Source: a virus
Taxonomy: Duplodnaviria; Heunggongvirae; Uroviricota; Caudoviricetes
IMG/VR virus record: IMGVR_UViG_2541047124_000022
Reading direction: 5' to 3' (one strand)
Length of the DNA: 14,871 nt
In this document: in pieces, positions 173 through 14,871 of the stretch
Numbering within the stretch: the first letter of the stretch is position 1
Layout: each line of letters opens with the position of its first letter
Translations under genes and position numbers: made by a program
The notes under the pieces: generated by a model
Told to the model about the DNA's origin: nothing
The model's input: only the letters and a program-made list of their open reading frames with translations
Database searches by the model: none

Positions 173-303
173 CGTGACGTTCCTTTGGGTGGGTGAGCCA
201 ACGCCCGGGAGCGATCTGCCCACAGAGAAAGTCACACTGACCACTCCGTAAGCTCCCCCCGAAAGGCTCTGTGGTTGGTATGCGCCGGGCGTGGCGCAGA
301 TAC

Positions 304-329
304 AAAAAAGGCCCGCCGAAGCGAGCCTG
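304..329 (-). terminator. Rho-independent terminator downstream of the tRNA array
   Basis: On the minus strand: 7-bp stem GGCTCGC/GCGGGCC (one mismatch) with a UUCG tetraloop, followed by TTTTTT. Confidence 0.6.
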
Positions 330-340
330 GAAAATAAGTG

Positions 341-417
341 TGGCGCGTTGTACTGGAGTCGAACCAGTGACCGATTGCTTAGAAGGCAATTGCTCTGTCC
401 GGCTGAGCTAAAAACGC
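341..417 (-). tRNA. tRNA-Arg, anticodon TCT (reads AGA), CCA encoded
   Basis: Reverse complement folds as a 77-nt cloverleaf: acceptor GCGTTTT/ACAACGC (one U.C mismatch at 6-67), D arm GCTC/GAGC, anticodon stem ATTGC/GCAAT with loop CTTCTAA, T arm ACTGG-TTCGACT-CCAGT, discriminator G, CCA. Confidence 0.85.
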
Positions 418-430
418 AGAATACCGATAA

Positions 431-507
431 TGGACCGCCATCGGGGACCCGAGCCCCGCGCAGCCAGCTTCGAAGGCTGGCGCTCTGTCACGATGAGCTA
501 ATGGCGG
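431..507 (-). tRNA. tRNA-Arg, anticodon TCG (reads CGA), atypical D and T loops, CCA encoded
   Basis: Reverse complement: acceptor CCGCCAT/ATGGCGG (7 perfect pairs), D stem GCTC/GAGC, anticodon stem CCAGC/GCTGG with loop CTTCGAA, T stem CGGGG/CCCCG, discriminator T, CCA. D loop lacks GG and T loop is CTCGGGT rather than TTCRANY, so it may be a phage-type or degenerate tRNA. Confidence 0.65.
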
Positions 508-514
508 TATGTGA

Positions 515-564
515 TGGTGGCCCTTGCTGGATTTGAACCAGCGACCTGGCGATTATGAGTCGCT
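515..564 (-). pseudogene. 5'-truncated tRNA with CAT anticodon (tRNA-Ile2/Met type); only nt 27-76 retained
   Basis: Reverse complement gives anticodon arm AGCGA-CTCATAA-TCGCC (4 of 5 stem pairs; first pair A-C mismatched), variable AGGTC, T arm GCTGG-TTCAAAT-CCAGC, acceptor 3' strand AAGGGCC, discriminator A, CCA. The expected 5' acceptor strand GGCCCTT and a D arm are absent; the sequence at 565-600 is unrelated and AT-rich. Confidence 0.6.
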
Positions 565-712
565 CTCATCATTTAGCTAAAATGGCTGGGGGAGTGATGA
601 TACATCAGTCACATTAAACATGAAAACAAAATGGTTTTAGGTGAAATACAAAAAGAATAGTGATTAAATATCAAATGGATATGCTTTAAATCTAACCACA
701 GTAAGGACGAGT

Positions 713-1657
713 ATGATTTTTCTCAAGAATGGCGAAAGTTTTATTCGCGTGAATGACTGGGCAGAAATTCAGGCGAGAGAGTCTTACTATCCCAAATTAG
801 AGTTAAATGATCAGCAACTCTCTGACGTTTTTGGTTACTACGATGACCTACCAGAGGAAATTCCATGTGGAAAATCAAATTGCCGCAAAGGGCATAAAAA
901 GGGATTTCTGGTAGTTACGAAAGAAGGATTTGAAACGAATATCGGCCATGTATGTGGAACTAATGTTTTTGGTATAGCCTTTGATAATTTAGCAATAGAA
1001 CTTTGCCGAAAAGCAGATTTCCATCGCTTACTTACCGCACTTAAAGAGGCAAAAGATGATATTTTTAGCTATTACAAACTCAAAGCCAAAATCGAATCTG
1101 GGCGTCCATCACTAACTGAGGTTGCTCATAGAATACTTGACATGAAAGACCCTAAAATCATCGGGCGTGCAGCTTATCAAACATTGAAAAAGATGGCTGC
1201 TTCTGGTGATGGGCGTGTTTTCCGCTCAAGATTAAAAAATACAGAAGAGCTAGAACTGGACGAAATTATGTCCCAGAAGCAAACAAGCGACTCAGCTCCA
1301 AAAGTTAACAACAAAAACAAAACCGTAAATGAACTTATTGGGGTAATACAATACCCTGAATGCTTGCTGAATGATTATGACATTGCTCTTCTTTATGAAA
1401 GAGATATAAAAATGGTTCTGGAAAAATTAAACAAATGTACCCCAGATGAATTGACTGAAAGAGAGGTGTTGTCTTTTGGAATAAAGGTTTCAAGATTAAG
1501 AGAACGCTTTAACTTTGTTCAGGAACGCTTAGAAAAATCCAGGGTTTTTGCAACAAGAGAAAACCTTAAACCTTTACGTGCATTACTTAACATTCAGAAA
1601 TCTGTAAGCAATAAAGACAAATTACTATTTAAGAAATTTATGGAAAATTTACCATAA
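713..1657 (+). CDS. Hypothetical protein, 314 aa; moron-like accessory gene of unknown function
   Basis: ATG at 713 with AAGGA SD 5 nt upstream; long uninterrupted ORF; visibly lower G+C than neighbours; opposite orientation to flanking genes; ends 7 nt before a strong hairpin terminator. No family recognised by eye. Confidence 0.75.
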   Translation: MIFLKNGESFIRVNDWAEIQARESYYPKLELNDQQLSDVFGYYDDLPEEIPCGKSNCRKGHKKGFLVVTKEGFETNIGHVCGTNVFGIAFDNLAIELCRKADFHRLLTALKEAKDDIFSYYKLKAKIESGRPSLTEVAHRILDMKDPKIIGRAAYQTLKKMAASGDGRVFRSRLKNTEELELDEIMSQKQTSDSAPKVNNKNKTVNELIGVIQYPECLLNDYDIALLYERDIKMVLEKLNKCTPDELTEREVLSFGIKVSRLRERFNFVQERLEKSRVFATRENLKPLRALLNIQKSVSNKDKLLFKKFMENLP

Positions 1658-1663
1658 TTAAAA

Positions 1664-1683
1664 AACCCGCTATAAAGCGGGTT
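1664..1683. terminator. Bidirectional rho-independent terminator
   Basis: 8-bp stem AACCCGCT/AGCGGGTT with ATAA loop. T-rich on the plus side (terminates 713-1657) and T-rich on the minus side (terminates the short transcript from the promoter at 1725-1754). Confidence 0.7.
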
Positions 1684-1724
1684 CCGTGTTAATTTTTATA
1701 TTGGCGCTAAACCCCATAATTAAA

Positions 1725-1754
1725 ATGATACAAGACAATTTTATGCAAAGTCAA
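1725..1754 (-). promoter_or_regulatory. Sigma70-type promoter just downstream of the zinc-finger gene, followed about 45 nt later by a terminator (pR'/tR'-like unit)
   Basis: Minus strand: -35 TTGACT (plus 1749-1754), 18-nt spacer, -10 TATCAT (plus 1725-1730). AT-rich -10-like repeats (TAATTAT, TATAAA) lie in the initial transcribed region before the hairpin at 1664-1683. Confidence 0.45.
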
Positions 1755-1793: not shown

Positions 1794-2609
1794 TCAGTAA
1801 CTCGTTGCCTTCTCAAATTCTCTAGCCGCATGCCGCTCACCTTGATGCAGGATATCAACCAATTTTTCATAGAATGGTTTCCAATTGCGCGACCATGAAG
1901 ACTGGTGCAGATCGGGAATGTATATTTGAATAGCTCGATGAACATTAGCTGATTTGATAGATACGAATCCCTTTCCACTACAACGCTCGCAGATTTTAAA
2001 CACTGGCACACCACGCTCGCTTGTGGCTTTGCGGTCCAGTACCTCTCCCTTTCCACCACAACGACACCTGGCACTTATCACTCCCTTCCCTTTACATACA
2101 TCGCAAACGACTGGTACAACTTCCGTTACCTCTGTCCATTTTTCCCAGTCTGACGGTCGAACAGCACGGGAGCGACTGGCCCAATATGGTGCTTTACCCC
2201 ATGGGTATGAAACCTTACGAATGACCTGCTTACGGGGTGTTAGTCCGGTACCACTGCAACTATGGCATGTTACGCTGGTGGCCGCCGATCGGGAATACTC
2301 AGCAAAAGCAAACTGAGCCAGTACCAGCATACACCAGCCAAATTCACCACCAGCTGCTTTACGCACATTCTTCGGTGCAATTTCCATCGCGTGACGCGCC
2401 AGCGCCTGGACTGCCATCTGCTCATCAGTCTTGCTGATACCGGCCTTCCCGAAGAAGGCCGCCAGGCCAAACCGCTCACGATTGCTGGTGGTACCAATAG
2501 CCGCCATAACATCGGTGCCTGTAAGACGTTCCGGAGAGGTTCCTTTCACATCGTCGCCGATATACATTCCCTGAGGACTGAAGTATTTTAGCGATGCCTC
2601 AAGCTTCAT
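1794..2609 (-). CDS. Zinc-finger protein with four DnaJ-like CxxCxGxG repeats, 271 aa; possible Q-type late antiterminator by position
   Basis: Motifs CHSCSGTG, CDVCKGKG, CRCGGKG, CERCSGKG. Start overlaps upstream gene stop (TAATG). Last gene of the early-right operon, immediately upstream of the promoter-terminator unit. Confidence 0.8.
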   Translation of the reverse strand: MKLEASLKYFSPQGMYIGDDVKGTSPERLTGTDVMAAIGTTSNRERFGLAAFFGKAGISKTDEQMAVQALARHAMEIAPKNVRKAAGGEFGWCMLVLAQFAFAEYSRSAATSVTCHSCSGTGLTPRKQVIRKVSYPWGKAPYWASRSRAVRPSDWEKWTEVTEVVPVVCDVCKGKGVISARCRCGGKGEVLDRKATSERGVPVFKICERCSGKGFVSIKSANVHRAIQIYIPDLHQSSWSRNWKPFYEKLVDILHQGERHAAREFEKATSY

Positions 2610-9156: not shown

Positions 9157-9522
9157 ATGACACATGAACCCATTAATACATATCGTCGCCGTATAGCTGT
9201 TGCGGCACTCCATCGAATAAAACGTAAAACAGGTGGTAATCTGCTTATTGTTGACCTTCCGGATGGGAACATTACGACCATAGAAATAACTGAACAGTTT
9301 ATAAACCAGTTGCTGTTACGCTTCGAAGGTATTACCCGTGGTGAATTGGGCCGGGTGGAGGGTGAAACCGAAATCCACACTGCATACCAGAATGCTATCG
9401 GGATTAATCAACATACTGAATACCTGACTGAAACCGGAAAGTTAATTATAGACACCTTTTTCAAGAGGTTATTGATTACGCGAAAGAAAAATATATCAGC
9501 GGAGGAATTAACTGATGGCTAA
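9157..9522 (+). CDS. Hypothetical protein, 121 aa
   Basis: ORF in the early operon; overlaps next gene by 8 nt. Confidence 0.5.
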   Translation: MTHEPINTYRRRIAVAALHRIKRKTGGNLLIVDLPDGNITTIEITEQFINQLLLRFEGITRGELGRVEGETEIHTAYQNAIGINQHTEYLTETGKLIIDTFFKRLLITRKKNISAEELTDG

Positions 9523-9730
9523 TTTATCCTCTGTATCTGTTGTGCACGAAAAAGTGCAGATCGTTATGATAATTGAAAATGGCCAAGTCACAGGTGTCTG
9601 CAAAGTCCGCGATGGCGAGCTGATTGCCAGCATGGATACATTCATACGGCTGGCAGAAAGAGCGGGGTATCAGATAACAGCACCTGCTCAGGAGGAAACC
9701 GGTGGCATTAACAGCAACACGCATTCCTGA
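9515..9730 (+). CDS. Hypothetical protein, 71 aa
   Basis: ATG with GGAGGA SD 7 nt upstream. Confidence 0.55.
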   Translation: MANLSSVSVVHEKVQIVMIIENGQVTGVCKVRDGELIASMDTFIRLAERAGYQITAPAQEETGGINSNTHS

Positions 9731-9920
9731 GCGGATCCACCGGCAGGCATTGCAGGTCCTGTTGTTGTACCGATGCCGACGGATATTTCCGCATCGGATA
9801 CAGCGCACCGGATATCTCAGTCTGAAGATTAACCGTCGCTGGCGGCTGTTATCGAAAGACGACGGCCGGAACTGGGAAGTAATGAGTCATGAACGTTATT
9901 CGGGAGAAATAAAGAAATGA
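9702..9920 (+). CDS. Arg-rich basic protein, 72 aa, GTG start
   Basis: GTG at 9702 with GGAGGA SD 5 nt upstream; stop overlaps next ATG (ATGA at 9917-9920); lies in a locally GC-rich segment. Confidence 0.4.
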   Translation: MALTATRIPERIHRQALQVLLLYRCRRIFPHRIQRTGYLSLKINRRWRLLSKDDGRNWEVMSHERYSGEIKK

Positions 9921-10369: not shown

Positions 10370-10558
10370 ATGAACATTTATTTCAGAATAGTTATATCAC
10401 TGGCAATTATCACATGTATTTACGGATTAATCGTTCCGGCCCTCATATCAATGAAGGATACGGTAGCAGTGATTTCTGGCTTTGCTCTGGCGTGTCTGAC
10501 CCCGCCCTGCATTTATGCCATTTATAAGGGTCTTTCTTTTTCTAAGGATAAAAGATGA
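10370..10558 (+). CDS. Small membrane protein with two predicted TM helices, 62 aa
   Basis: Strong SD (CAGGAGGACC-ATG); hydrophobic stretches IVISLAIITCIYGLIVPALI and VAVISGFALACLTPPCIYAIY; ATGA-coupled to the downstream SPFH gene. Confidence 0.7.
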   Translation: MNIYFRIVISLAIITCIYGLIVPALISMKDTVAVISGFALACLTPPCIYAIYKGLSFSKDKR

Positions 10559-11382
10559 AAAAATTACTTTTTGCTTTAGCCCTTGTTCTGCCGACCATTG
10601 GCCTTGTCGGTTGCGATCGCGTTGAGCCTGGTAATGTGGGCATCAAAGTAAACAAACTGGGCGACGATAAAGGCGTCGGTGAAGTGGTCGGTGTTGGGCG
10701 CTACTGGACTGGATGGAACACTGAGGTTTACATCTTCCCGACCTTTAAGCAGATGAAGACCTACGATGATCCATTCAGTTTCCAGATGAGTGACGGTACA
10801 ACCATCGGCTATCACATCGGCGTGGCCTACAAAGTTGATCCATCCAAAGTTACCACGGTGTTTCAAACCTACCGCAAAGGCGTGGACGACATTACCGACA
10901 CCGACCTGCGCCAGAAGATAGCCGACGCACTCAACCGACTGGCCAGCAAAATGACCACCGACAAATTTATCGACGGCGGCAAGTCTGAGCTGCTGGATGC
11001 AGCTCTTAAAGACATTCAGGAAGAAATGACGCCCATCGGTATTCAGGTAATGAGCCTCTCATATGTGGGTAAGCCGGAGTACCCGCCTACTGTTATCGAC
11101 AGCATTAATGCCAAAGTCACGGCGAACCAGAAAACCCTGCAACGCGAGCAGGAAGTAAAACAGCGCGAAGCGGAAGCCAACATGTTGCGCGCGGAAGCTG
11201 CCGGACAGGCAGATGCGATTCGCACAAAAGCCCAGGCCGAAGCCGACGCTATTCGTTTACGCGGTGAAGCTCTGCGTCAGAACCCCGGTGTTATGGAGCT
11301 GGAAGCCATCAACAAGTGGAACGGTACACTGCCGCAATACATGACCAGCGGTGCCAACACACCATTTATTCAGGTTAAGTAA
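10555..11382 (+). CDS. SPFH/band-7 (prohibitin/HflC-like) lipoprotein, 275 aa
   Basis: Signal peptide with lipobox LVGC (Cys20); SPFH-like core; C-terminal Ala/Glu/Arg/Gln-rich coiled-coil region (QREQEVKQREAEANMLRAEAAGQADAIRTKAQAEADAIRLRGEA). Confidence 0.75.
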   Translation: MKKLLFALALVLPTIGLVGCDRVEPGNVGIKVNKLGDDKGVGEVVGVGRYWTGWNTEVYIFPTFKQMKTYDDPFSFQMSDGTTIGYHIGVAYKVDPSKVTTVFQTYRKGVDDITDTDLRQKIADALNRLASKMTTDKFIDGGKSELLDAALKDIQEEMTPIGIQVMSLSYVGKPEYPPTVIDSINAKVTANQKTLQREQEVKQREAEANMLRAEAAGQADAIRTKAQAEADAIRLRGEALRQNPGVMELEAINKWNGTLPQYMTSGANTPFIQVK

Positions 11383-13557: not shown

Positions 13558-14871
13558 ATGGATAAAGTCAAATATCCAACAGGCGTCGAAAACCACGGCG
13601 GCACATTACGCATCTGGTTTAATTTTAAAGGTAAACGTGTCAGGGAAAATCTTGGTGTCCCTGACACTGCCAAGAACAGGAAGATCGCCGGGGAACTGCG
13701 GACATCAGTATGTTTTGCCATCCGCACAGGAAGCTTTGATTATGCTGCACAGTTCCCTGACTCCCCCAACCTTCAGGCTTTTGGGGTAAGTAAAAAAGAA
13801 ATTACGGTGAAGGAACTTGAAGAAAAGTGGCTGGATCTGAAACGAATGGAAATCTCTGCAAATGCATTCAATCGCTATGAATCCGTTGCAAGAACGATGG
13901 TTCCGAAAATTGGAGGCAGTAGACTGGTGTCATCGGTAACCAAAGAGGAATTGCTGTATATCAGGAAAGATTTGCTGACCGGGCATCAGAATTCAACGAA
14001 AAACAAAGCAGCAGCAAAAGGACGGAGCGTCGTTACTGTAAATTATTACATGACGACAATCGCTGGAATGTTTCAGTTTGCTGCAGATCACGGTTACTTA
14101 GAAGCAAATCCCTTCCAGGGAATTAAGCCTCTTAAAAGAGCCAGGGCAGAGCCAGATCCGCTAACTCGTGACGAATTTATTCGCCTGATAGATGCTTGCC
14201 GACATCAGCAGACGAAAAACCTGTGGTCATTGGCTGTGTACACAGGAATGCGTCACGGTGAACTGGTCTCCCTGGCCTGGGAAGATATCGATCTGAAGGC
14301 AGGAACAATTACCATCAGGCGCAATTATACGAAACTTGGTGAGTTCACTCTACCGAAAACTGAAGCAAGCACAAACAGGGTTGTGCACCTTATCCAGCCC
14401 GCTATCAGTGTCCTGAAAAATCAGGCTGAAATGACAAGACTGGGTAAGCAGTACAACATCAAGGTGCAACTACGTGAATATGGACGTTCAGTGAACCATG
14501 AATGTACTTTCGTGTTTAACCCTCAAGTGGTTAGAAAAAGCGAACAGGTAGGTTTTGTCTACAAAGTCGATTCTGTAGGTGACTCATGGGAAACAGCCAT
14601 TAAGCGTGCAGGGATCAGGCATCGAAAGGCATACCAGTCACGACACACTTATGCGTGCTGGTCATTATCTGCCGGTGCAAACCCAAGCTTCATTGCCAGC
14701 CAGATGGGCCATGCAAGCGCCCAGATGGTGTTCAATGTATACGGAGCATGGATGACTGACAGCAATGCAGAACAGATCGCAATGCTGAATCAGAAGCTGA
14801 CAGATTATGTCCCAATGATGCCCCATAGTCACCAAAGTGACACCAGAGGATTATTAAAATCAGTAAGTTAA
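13558..14871 (+). CDS. int: Tyrosine site-specific recombinase (phage integrase), 437 aa
   Basis: N-terminal arm-binding-type segment (PTGVENHGGTLRIWFNFKGKRVRENLG); catalytic-region motifs (TGMRHGEL, HTYACW, VFNVYGAW); GGAGGT SD 5 nt upstream; stop at the last base of the window. Confidence 0.9.
   Translation: MDKVKYPTGVENHGGTLRIWFNFKGKRVRENLGVPDTAKNRKIAGELRTSVCFAIRTGSFDYAAQFPDSPNLQAFGVSKKEITVKELEEKWLDLKRMEISANAFNRYESVARTMVPKIGGSRLVSSVTKEELLYIRKDLLTGHQNSTKNKAAAKGRSVVTVNYYMTTIAGMFQFAADHGYLEANPFQGIKPLKRARAEPDPLTRDEFIRLIDACRHQQTKNLWSLAVYTGMRHGELVSLAWEDIDLKAGTITIRRNYTKLGEFTLPKTEASTNRVVHLIQPAISVLKNQAEMTRLGKQYNIKVQLREYGRSVNHECTFVFNPQVVRKSEQVGFVYKVDSVGDSWETAIKRAGIRHRKAYQSRHTYACWSLSAGANPSFIASQMGHASAQMVFNVYGAWMTDSNAEQIAMLNQKLTDYVPMMPHSHQSDTRGLLKSVS

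Follow-up and report, generated by a model that had tools for sequence, protein, structure and literature searches.

The locus examined here, designated psi-ileZ, raises the question how a phage tRNA gene can combine a perfect 3' half with a 5' half that no longer supports a cloverleaf. It is located in a window of 14,871 nucleotides (the whole stretch of DNA that was analysed; IMG/VR record IMGVR_UViG_2541047124_000022), at the head of an array of three tRNA genes. In the initial annotation the gene was described as a 5'-truncated tRNA that marks a recombination junction, with the 5' acceptor strand and the D arm replaced by unrelated AT-rich DNA, and two origins were proposed: a moron insertion that had deleted the 5' part of the tRNA, or an att-site remnant. 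The comparisons given below confirm this observation in part and likewise lend partial support to the interpretation. The features involved are collected in Table 1.

Table 1. Positions of the tRNA array and its surroundings in the window
Feature	Position	Strand	Description and basis
Terminator-like hairpin and T run	309..328	-	3' of argO; consensus scan; sequence kept in Stx2a_1447 and Stx2e-type arrays
argO, tRNA-Arg(TCT), array gene 3	341..417	-	ARAGORN; Rfam 62.3 bits; 87/90 aligned positions vs Stx2a_1447
argN, tRNA-Arg(TCG), array gene 2	431..507	-	ARAGORN; Rfam 46.5 bits; 78/82 aligned positions vs Stx2a_1447
psi-ileZ, degenerate tRNA-Ile(CAT) pseudogene, array gene 1	515..587	-	full length, 73 nt; CCA 517-515, anticodon CAT 557-555
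Intact-type segment of psi-ileZ	515..559	-	anticodon loop, anticodon-stem 3' strand, variable loop, T arm, 3' acceptor strand, CCA
GAGCGA run, site of the 4-nt loss	560..565	-	intact ileZ: GAGC-GAGC-GA; gap in Rfam and DNA alignments
Decayed-type segment of psi-ileZ	566..587	-	5' acceptor strand and D arm
Promoter-like site	597..626	-	TTTTCA, 18-nt spacer, TATCAT; just upstream of psi-ileZ; consensus scan
AT-rich 314-aa ORF	713..1657	+	opposite strand to Q and the tRNAs; ORF list; GC 0.33-0.39
Candidate terminator	1685 to 1662	-	downstream of Q; consensus scan
Candidate late promoter	1754 to 1725	-	TTGACT, 18-nt spacer, TATCAT; directly downstream of Q; consensus scan
Q	1794-2609	-	PF03589, E 1e-51

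A full-length but degenerate tRNA-Ile gene

The 3' part of the gene, from the anticodon arm to the CCA, proved to be intact, as had been claimed. The minus-strand sequence of window 565-515 (GAGCGACTCATAATCGCCAGGTCGCTGGTTCAAATCCAGCAAGGGCCACCA) corresponds exactly to nt 26-76 of intact phage ileZ (76 nt), with 51 of 51 aligned positions identical to the gene of Stx2a_1447 (AP012536.1) and 39 of 51 to the pseudogene of Stx2e-type prophages; the T arm, the CAU anticodon loop, the discriminator base and the CCA are those of intact ileZ. The description of the remainder as unrelated DNA was not borne out. In the alignment, window 587-566 (AGCCATTTTAGCTAAATGATGA) pairs with ileZ nt 1-21 (GGCC-CTTTAGCTCAGTGGTGA), and over window 566-590 the same nucleotide is found at 19 of 24 aligned positions in intact ileZ and at 23 of 24 in the Stx2e-type pseudogene. 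The pattern TTTAGCT.A.TG.TGAGAGCGA was kept between the 5' part and intact ileZ, so that the D arm is recognisable, and blastn matches window 508-590 to Sakai ileZ1 with 89.7% identity. The Rfam tRNA covariance model (RF00005) aligns to window 518-586(-) from end to end (model positions 1-71). Instead of a truncated tRNA, the locus thus holds a full-length degenerate gene, which differs from intact ileZ by five substitutions and a 1-nt insertion in the 5' part and by the loss of 4 nt (one GAGC of GAGC-GAGC). In our reading of the alignment, on which the numbering depends, the changes are G1>A, the insertion and C5>T in the acceptor 5' strand, and C13>A, G15>A and G18>A in the D arm.

These data bear directly on the reading that was originally favoured, in which an AT-rich moron insertion deleted nt 1-26 of the tRNA and set unrelated DNA against nt 27. 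The GC content does fall from about 0.57 to 0.35 just upstream of psi-ileZ, the megablast likeness of the window to Stx phages ends at 565, and the array order and the prophage context fit; that context stands. The proposed mechanism is nevertheless very unlikely, given that D arm and acceptor 5' strand can still be made out (19/24), that the blastn match to Sakai ileZ1 extends to 590, that a diverged promoter-like region persists at the position seen in intact arrays, and that in strain F719 an intact tRNA-Ile adjoins a homologous ORF in this very position. At the position of the promoter-like site the intact arrays have TTGCAG or TTGCAA, a spacer, TATTAT and a GC-rich discriminator. The 45 nt upstream of psi-ileZ agree with the flanks of Stx2a_1447 and F719 at 20-21 of 45 ungapped positions (shuffle P 0.006 and 0.003, respectively), a weak likeness that is seen for one of two flank families; the site is suggestive of a promoter and is listed as a candidate. 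The 314-aa ORF belongs to phrog_7003, a family of unknown function, is annotated as hypothetical protein WP_000576620.1 in the near-identical prophages L001 and L008, and had no match in Pfam or PADLOC. Its homologue in F719 is distant (26% identity) and has the same position and opposite strand; as it adjoins an intact tRNA-Ile, the presence of this ORF family does not in itself destroy the tRNA.

The remaining structure of psi-ileZ was evaluated by model score, gene calling and predicted folding. Its Rfam score of 36.0 bits exceeds the gathering score of RF00005 (29), which speaks for homology and not for function. Intact ileZ genes reached 72.5 (Stx phage) and 71.2 bits, an allele that carries only the 4-nt loss 58.2 and the pseudogene of phage 611R1 32.6, and the Stx2e-type pseudogene had no match to the model at E <= 0.01. 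ARAGORN called only tRNA-Arg(TCT) (341-417) and tRNA-Arg(TCG) (431-507) on the window and none at the psi-ileZ site, neither here nor in L003 and L013, and it does call the 72-nt and 76-nt ileZ alleles (L018, L019). The Rfam alignment has a 4-nt gap in the anticodon-stem 5' strand and mismatches in the acceptor, D and anticodon stems. Seven acceptor pairs are not formed between 5' GCCAUUU and 3' AAGGGCC, where C2-C71 and A4-G69 are mismatched, and the alternative register requires an extra nucleotide before the D stem. With 4 nt missing, the single GAGC must serve both the D-stem 3' strand and the anticodon-stem 5' strand; a separate D stem and a five-pair anticodon stem are lacking, and the D-stem pair 13-22 is A-G. 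The predicted fold (-18 kcal/mol, z -0.96; intact ileZ, -33.5 kcal/mol, z -4.0) retains just the anticodon and T hairpins, with an MFE no better than that of shuffled sequence. A valid cloverleaf with a non-canonical 5' half, an option that the initial annotation had left for inspection, was rejected as a functional tRNA in view of the silence of ARAGORN, the mismatches in three stems together with the 4-nt gap, and the shuffle-level MFE. Judged purely by its structure, psi-ileZ should be non-functional as a tRNA. A Rfam match to Plastid-ycf2 on the opposite strand was discarded as a tRNA-antisense artefact, which recurs opposite every ileZ examined.

The array and its prophage

The placement of psi-ileZ as the first gene of a phage ileZ-argN-argO-like array in the canonical late-regulatory position was upheld: Ile(CAT), Arg(TCG) and Arg(TCT) follow one another on the late-transcript strand downstream of Q, each member is homologous to its counterpart, and the layout is that of Stx2a_1447. 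In the Stx-converting and lambdoid phages (Stx2a_1447; Sakai Sp4 with ileZ1) the ileZ gene is likewise the first of three tRNAs, located after Q and ahead of the cargo and lysis genes, in the same order and on the same strand, and the argN and argO genes of the window are 94-97% identical to those of the Stx-phage cluster. In total, 289 phage records match window 300-720, and roughly 2,950 E. coli genomes carry an array headed by ileZ. From their position, the promoter and terminator at 1662..1754 would correspond to PR'/tR'. In the literature library that was searched, no paper names ileZ, argN and argO together.

The window shares 99.79% identity with prophage L008 and, from position 338 onwards, 99.99% with prophage L001. 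The likeness to L001 stops at 338, just 3' of argO, and this other edge of the array reads as a mosaic boundary as well. In both prophages lysis, terminase, portal and capsid genes are found to the left of the tRNA array, where they had been predicted in case the array belonged to a lambdoid prophage. The DNA from the tRNA to int encodes Q, a primase, a helicase, HTH regulators, Xis and Int, i.e. the early region of the same lambdoid prophage. In L008 int is directly followed by yecE (DUF72), yecN and cmoA, and in L001 the same genes follow after an IS1203 copy; since the int stop codon is the end of the window, its int-yecE junction is taken from these two prophages as proxies. The element is a lambdoid prophage integrated at yecE.

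It is common for integrative elements to leave behind the 3' part of a tRNA as an att repeat, and psi-ileZ resembles such remnants in having a perfect 3' half beside dissimilar DNA and an integrase gene nearby, at the far end of the window. The second of the original proposals, that the tRNA 3' half is an att remnant and that the roughly 14.3 kb to its right, ending in int, constitute a separate integrative element, has nonetheless a next to negligible probability. Across the window and the loci L001 (34.7 kb) and L008 (31 kb), no 15-mer of the tRNA 3' half has a second copy, and the full-length tRNA copy sought beyond int is absent from L001 and L008, where yecE and yecN are found instead; the missing second copy and the abutment of int on yecE exclude the att site. 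In addition, the intervening genes are the early region of the very prophage whose late genes lie beyond the tRNAs on the other side, and homology to ileZ extends into the 5' half, which does not hold for an att remnant.

Breakpoint and allele classes

We scanned the locus for a breakpoint at substitution sites, with Stx2a_1447 (AP012536.1) representing the intact type and STEC276 the decayed type. The informative sites 5' of window 559 were of the decayed type in 29 cases and of the intact type in one, and from 559 on the ratio was 3 to 48. The best cut had a Fisher P of 1.7e-17, with the last decayed-type site at 569 and the first intact-type site at 559, so that the recombination junction is found at about the place where the initial annotation had put it. 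The identities to the intact and the decayed comparator were, respectively, 19/45 and 42/45 for the upstream segment, 19/24 and 23/24 for the ileZ 5' part, 51/51 and 39/51 for the ileZ 3' part, 78/82 and 57/82 for argN, and 87/90 and 76/90 for argO. The 4-nt loss has no bearing on where the breakpoint lies, since it is also found on its own in an otherwise intact 72-nt ileZ allele in 8 complete E. coli genomes; it may stem from either parent or may have arisen twice. The GAGTTAT of the decayed lineage can be obtained from intact ileZ by the GAGC loss and two substitutions, or by a different 4-nt loss and one substitution.

The 72-nt allele, found for example in E. coli 2013C-4830 under the annotation tRNA-Ile, shares the GAGAGCGACTCAT junction and the CCACCATCACATACC spacer with the window; in a comparison with window 508-581, 3 of 74 positions are different. 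Unlike psi-ileZ, it has an intact acceptor stem and D arm, is called as a tRNA by ARAGORN and RefSeq, and has a different upstream gene. It documents the first inactivating step of a scenario of decay in place, in which an intact ileZ gained the 4-nt loss by slippage and then point mutations in its 5' half, and in which the other alleles represent later stages, in line with the graded Rfam scores. We consider such decay unlikely, since the five substitutions and the 1-nt insertion all fall within the first ~21 nt and none within the next 51 nt, the upstream flank shows a weak relationship, or none, to those of intact genes, and the identical 5' half occurs on at least three different downstream arrays and spacers, a pattern that point mutation cannot produce.

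The decayed 5' half and the AT-rich DNA upstream of it were found joined to four different 3' continuations in prophages, and a 23-nt stretch within this half (TTTTAGCTAAATGATGAGAGCGA) was identical in 17 of the 17 retrieved loci that carry it, the window included. The alleles could be divided into: i) class A (the window and 5 other loci), with CTCAT, an intact 3' half and argN-argO; ii) class B (611R1 and 3 others), with GTTAT (anticodon TAT) and then an intact 3' half; iii) class C (3 loci), with TAT, a TTCAAGT T loop and an Arg(TCT)/Gly(TCC) array; and iv) class D (the Stx2e/2i prophages), decayed to about nt 63 and continued by a spacer and an 81-nt argN variant. An intact gene with the class C 3' end is present in L020, and the class D spacer and 81-nt argN variant adjoin an intact ileZ in strain 06-00048. 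The retained decayed sequence is nested across the classes, being longest in D, shorter in B and C and shortest in A. The exchange points of all four classes lie inside the ~75-nt gene, from about nt 19 to the end of the T arm, and those of classes A, B and C cluster from the D stem to the anticodon loop.

The class B allele of Escherichia phage vB_EcoS-611R1 (ON470586.1), annotated as 'tRNA-Pseudo-TAT', occupies the same locus with Q, the 314-aa ORF, argN and argO as neighbours, has an identical decayed 5' half and is 95% identical to window 304-720. Unlike psi-ileZ, it still has G and T, as in the decayed type, where the window has its positions 559 and 557, so that its anticodon is TAT and its exchange point falls a few nucleotides 3' of that in the window. 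The tRNA pseudogene upstream of stx2e/stx2i (STEC276, STEC308, CFIAFB20180511) shares the decayed 5' half and the ORF/Q module with the window, but its anticodon-stem 3' strand, variable loop and T stem are decayed as well, and the place of the second gene is taken by the 81-nt variant, which bears the annotation tRNA-OTHER in cq9 and 06-00048. The tRNA-pseudo arrangement is mentioned in one paper on stx2i strains. As this 81-nt variant adjoins an intact ileZ in cq9 and 06-00048, the Stx2e-type allele was rejected as a uniformly decayed parent with a 'decayed argN', and the allele itself looks recombinant from the T arm onward. A parent with a pseudogene decayed over its entire length was not found among the alleles retrieved; because of this, and because of the apparently recombinant nature of the Stx2e-type allele, the direction and order of events are ones that we infer. 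An exact-pattern scan for the decayed 5' half in one genome per species (with a single E. coli genome) and a search of viral contigs for reciprocal recombinants with the Stx2e-type 3' half had no match.

A probable chimeric origin and its consequences

We consider it likely, with a probability of about 0.8, that psi-ileZ is a chimeric pseudogene in which the 5' part of a decayed allele and the 3' half from an intact array were joined by homologous recombination. The 5' part would derive from an old decayed allele that travelled with the upstream module (Q, the late promoter/terminator-like unit and the 314-aa ORF), and an intact array would have contributed argN, argO and the part of psi-ileZ from the anticodon loop on; the join, made by homologous crossover or by gene conversion, would lie somewhere from window 569 to 559. 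As the presumed inactivating lesions (acceptor-stem mismatches, broken D-stem pair and 4-nt loss) lie 5' of this point, the exchange would not have restored function. The residual homology in the dead tRNA gene may be the only sequence that the upstream module still shares with the tRNA arrays of other phages, and psi-ileZ could therefore act as the left-hand crossover site when the downstream array, along with its cargo, is swapped. As such, psi-ileZ is a routine by-product of phage mosaicism, of an ordinary kind.

Retention of psi-ileZ for a function, as a promoter or processing leader for argN-argO or as an unusual tRNA-like RNA, appears improbable. The 5' half and upstream region are (near-)identical in all retrieved loci that carry both, a promoter-like site precedes the gene, the T arm and anticodon hairpin are still predicted to fold, and the Rfam score lies above the gathering threshold. 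Recent common descent, however, explains the conservation equally well (the flanking non-coding DNA agrees at 42 of 45 positions), there is no covariation to test, the anticodon is either CAT or TAT, the 3' half has been exchanged or has decayed freely from class to class, and the fold is at the level of shuffled sequence. We give a similarly small chance to the idea that the clustering of the exchange points reflects a site-directed process at the tRNA gene, and not just the use of the only homology on offer. Such a process might be recombination of the integrase type at the anticodon loop, or breakage where a tRNA gene is structured or heavily transcribed; lambdoid mosaicism would then be organised by phage tRNA genes as active hot spots of recombination. 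In a milder version, the dead gene might be kept as promoter and leader for argN-argO.

Under the chimeric origin that we prefer, psi-ileZ would be a compact example of a short conserved island that serves as a crossover site for swaps of lambdoid tRNA arrays. The DNA that follows the array also varies among prophages: it is stx2 in the stx2e/stx2i prophages and a TerB-family gene in the prophage of the window. The lineage supplies the two Arg tRNAs and probably not the AUA-reading tRNA-Ile that related Stx phages provide. Beyond annotation and the record-keeping of phage evolution the importance of the locus is slight. With respect to annotation, psi-ileZ is unannotated by RefSeq in L001 and L008, the sister allele is marked as a pseudo-tRNA in the GenBank phage record, and the 72-nt allele that standard tools call tRNA-Ile may be a silent null.

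A degenerate ileZ gene at the head of the tRNA array

The element at 587-515 (psi-ileZ) is a full-length degenerate gene and not a truncation. The minus strand over 590-515 reads CCCAGCCATTTTAGCTAAATGATGAGAGCGACTCATAATCGCCAGGTCGCTGGTTCAAATCCAGCAAGGGCCACCA, the intact 76-nt ileZ of the Stx2-converting phage Stx2a_1447 reads GGCCCTTTAGCTCAGTGGTGAGAGCGAGCGACTCATAATCGCCAGGTCGCTGGTTCAAATCCAGCAAGGGCCACCA, and the Rfam tRNA covariance model matches 518-586 (-) over its entire length (model positions 1-71; 36.0 bits, gathering score 29). From GAGCGACTCAT through CCA, window 565-515 is identical to the Stx2a_1447 gene (51/51 aligned positions), which bears out the initial annotation that tRNA nucleotides 27-76 are intact; its claim that the 5' acceptor strand and D arm were replaced by unrelated AT-rich DNA did not hold, as the 5' part aligns to ileZ. 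The changes in that part, in our own numbering as read from the alignments, are: G1>A, a 1-nt insertion after C4, C5>T, C13>A, G15>A and G18>A, and one copy of the tandem GAGC-GAGC of ileZ is missing. In the Rfam alignment, 4 nt are missing from the 5' strand of the anticodon stem, and there are mismatched pairs in the acceptor (two), D and anticodon stems. By blastn, ileZ1 of Sakai prophage Sp4 is 89.7% identical to window 508-590. The proposed search for a valid cloverleaf with a tRNA-scanning tool (ARAGORN, over the window) called no tRNA at 515-600.

Judged from its structure, psi-ileZ probably does not function as a tRNA. With 4 nt missing, the 3' side of the D stem and the 5' side of the anticodon stem have to share one GAGC, and D-stem pair 13-22 is A-G. 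Of the hairpins, only those of the anticodon and T arms remain in the predicted fold (-18 kcal/mol, z -0.96; 34 of 200 shuffles fold equally well); that of intact ileZ has -33.5 kcal/mol (z -4.0). Rfam tRNA scores across ileZ alleles form a graded series: 72.5 and 71.2 bits for intact ileZ (loci L002 and L020), 58.2 bits for a 72-nt allele with the 4-nt loss alone (L018, E. coli 2013C-4830), 36.0 bits for psi-ileZ, 32.6 bits for the allele of phage vB_EcoS-611R1 (L003) and no match at E <= 0.01 for the Stx2e-type pseudogene. Opposite every examined ileZ copy (window 518-586(+), also L002, L018 and L020) the Rfam Plastid-ycf2 5'UTR model gave sub-threshold matches (23-38 bits), which appear to be an artefact of tRNA-like sequence inside that model.

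Features in and around the tRNA array and in the rest of the window
Feature	Position	Strand	Basis or location
TerB-family gene, 5' end	171-1	-	
tRNA-Arg(TCT), argO	341-417	-	ARAGORN
tRNA-Arg(TCG), argN	431-507	-	ARAGORN
psi-ileZ, degenerate full-length gene, 73 nt	587-515	-	Rfam model and alignments to ileZ
Promoter-like site (TTTTCA, 18-nt spacer, TATCAT)	626 to 597	-	upstream of psi-ileZ
314-aa AT-rich ORF (GC 0.33-0.39)	713-1657	+	between post-Q promoter/terminator unit and tRNAs
Terminator-like 10-pair hairpin, then T run	1685 to 1662	-	downstream of Q
Promoter-like site (TTGACT, 18-nt spacer, TATCAT)	1754 to 1725	-	directly downstream of Q
Q	1794-2609	-	PF03589
Early-left genes (frameshifted CDS, ParE-like, SPFH, ORF6N region)	about 9157-9515, 9702-9920, 10555-11382	+	
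Integrase	13558-14871		

A probable exchange between intact and decayed alleles

The genomes of lambdoid phages are mosaics that recombine at short conserved stretches. Substitution sites were compared between the window, Stx2a_1447 (intact) and STEC276 (decayed, Stx2e-type). The sites 5' of window 559 comprised 29 of decayed and 1 of intact type, and those from 559 onward 3 and 48, respectively (best cut, Fisher P = 1.7e-17). The switch falls between 569, the last site of decayed type, and 559, the first of intact type. From this switch and the identities per segment we infer that the junction is a real exchange between two alleles of one gene and not a fusion to foreign DNA. What stands of the recombination junction originally proposed at the tRNA is that the 3' half is intact and that a real discontinuity lies around nt 19-32; the 5' half is a decayed homologue instead of foreign sequence.

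Identity of window segments to the intact (Stx2a_1447) and decayed (STEC276) comparators
Segment	Intact	Decayed
Upstream, 591-635	19/45	42/45
5' part	19/24	23/24
3' part	51/51	39/51
argN	78/82	57/82
argO	87/90	76/90

The exact 5'-half motif TTTTAGCTAAATGATGAGAGCGA was found in 9 viral contigs and in retrieved E. coli prophage and phage loci. All 17 loci retrieved with this motif were compared, and they share one invariant 5' half and AT-rich upstream DNA, joined to four different continuations. An intact ileZ with the exact class C 3' end and spacer occurs in L020. The diverged stretch of class D is followed by a spacer and an 81-nt second gene, a pair that strain 06-00048 has beside intact ileZ; in strain cq9 this 81-nt variant, too, adjoins intact ileZ, though the spacer differs. 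How much decayed sequence a class keeps is nested: D keeps the longest stretch, B and C less, and A the least, and at least three different intact partners are involved. This is the pattern expected of homologous crossovers that recurred within an old pseudogene; no parent decayed from end to end was found.

Continuations of the invariant 5' half
Class	Members	Continuation
A	window, L001, L008, L009, L013, L017	...GAGCGA-CTCAT..., intact 3' half, argN-argO
B	phage 611R1 (L003), L011, L012, L016	...GAGCGA-GTTAT... (anticodon TAT), intact 3' half, argN-argO
C	L010, L014, L015	TAT, TTCAAGT T loop, different array: Arg-TCT; Gly-TCC also in L010 and L014
D	Stx2e/2i prophages L004-L006	divergence extends through anticodon-stem 3' strand, variable loop and T stem

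Of 5,426 complete E. coli genomes, 8 have the 72-nt allele (L018:2508-2579), in which one GAGC of the tandem pair is lost and the rest is perfect; the window has no copy of it. It carries the annotation tRNA-Ile in RefSeq and is called by ARAGORN (anticodon at position 30). It may be a silent null that such standard tools take for a working gene. Since the 4-nt loss lies at a tandem GAGC repeat, slippage could recur, and since it occurs alone in this allele, it is useless for placing the breakpoint; the loss in the window may come from either parent. Two routes could lead to the GAGTTAT of the decayed lineage: the same loss with two substitutions, or another 4-nt loss with one.

The 81-nt second gene is annotated 'tRNA-OTHER' (L021:2529-2609, L022:2527-2607) in classical Stx2e prophages and strain 06-00048, and the matching stretch in L004-L006 is unannotated. 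Four nucleotides are inserted in it, its anticodon arm is rewritten, and it adjoins intact ileZ; ARAGORN makes no call on it in L004, and it may be a pseudogene or an unusual tRNA.

Prophage context and the region upstream of psi-ileZ

E. coli CAU16175 (L008 14001-28871) matches the full length of the window at 99.79% identity, and there, as in strain 10671 (L001), the tRNAs lie within one lambdoid prophage. To their left are holin, lysozyme, Rz-like lysis protein, terminase, portal and capsid genes, so that the lysis and structural genes suggested left of position 1 are indeed found in these near-identical prophages. To their right are Q, toprim primase, DEAD-box helicase, HTH regulators, excisionase and integrase, followed by yecE (DUF72), yecN and cmoA. 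Integrative elements often leave 3' fragments of tRNA genes as att repeats, and the initial annotation had also considered psi-ileZ as such a remnant, bordering a separate element of roughly 14.3 kb, which a full-length copy of the tRNA with the same 3' 50 nt just beyond position 14871 would have supported. No 15-mer of the tRNA 3' half recurs within the window or the L001 and L008 loci, yecE, yecN and cmoA lie beyond int in these, and a single prophage spans the tRNAs; the att-remnant reading is therefore refuted, and the prophage integration site is yecE.

The favoured alternative had been that a moron insertion deleted the 5' part of the tRNA gene. Its prophage context was right, and the deletion is rejected: the 5' half is present as a decayed homologue, a promoter-like site lies upstream, and in strain F719 a 26%-identical homologue of the 314-aa ORF adjoins an intact tRNA-Ile in the same slot and orientation. 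This ORF matches phrog_7003 (unknown function) and nothing in Pfam or PADLOC. It runs opposite to Q and the tRNAs, between the array and the candidate late promoter/terminator unit, so a late transcript would cross it antisense. Conserved Cys and His residues occur near its N terminus, and the terminator-like hairpin just beyond its convergent stop codon (1657) could terminate it too.

At the position of the 626-597 site, Stx2a_1447, F719 and L020 differ in having TTGCAG/TTGCAA, a spacer, TATTAT and a GC-rich discriminator. Ungapped, the 45 nt upstream of psi-ileZ match Stx2a_1447 at 20 positions (shuffle P 0.006) and F719 at 21 (P 0.003), and do not match the other flank family (L018, L019); the similarity is suggestive, not strong.

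The early-left region of the near-identical prophages holds a frameshifted hypothetical CDS, a small ParE-family toxin-like gene and genes for SPFH-domain and ORF6N-domain proteins, with no PADLOC match where tested.

Distribution and the remainder of the array

Megablast recovered at least 80% of window 508-760 from 22 of 5,426 complete E. coli genomes. Ten of these match at 100% identity, five at 98.4%, which is consistent with class B, and six are of Stx2e/2i type. More sensitive blastn recovered such sequence in 27 genomes, and an ileZ-family gene occurs in about 2,950. The sister allele of phage vB_EcoS-611R1 is annotated 'tRNA-Pseudo-TAT' (GenBank ON470586.1), and in L001 and L008 the psi-ileZ site carries no RefSeq annotation. 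Psi-ileZ is an ordinary chimeric tRNA pseudogene of low interest, situated at a mosaic boundary within a lambdoid prophage.

The argN T loop of the window (~448-454) is CTCGGGT, with the usually conserved T54 and A58 changed to C and G, a variant common to the window, L001, L008 and L009 only; other arrays have TTCGAGC, TTCGAGT or TTCAAGT. With an Rfam score of 46.5 bits versus 55.9 in Stx2a_1447, argN may be impaired. The sRNA family STnc100 has strong matches downstream of the array in related phages (129-154 bits; L002:1421-1636, L018:2067-2257, L003:5764-5963) and gives only a 20-bit sub-threshold match in the window (298-402, overlapping argO); a true copy would be left of the window, or absent.

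A second mosaic boundary lies at 338, just 3' of argO. From there on, strain 10671 and the window share 99.99% identity; to the left they are unrelated, strain 10671 having a DUF6645 gene where the window and CAU16175 have a TerB-family gene followed by DUF3927. The ileZ-argN-argO cluster has reportedly been described upstream of stx in phage 933W, and in Stx phages stx2 occupies the TerB/DUF6645 slot.
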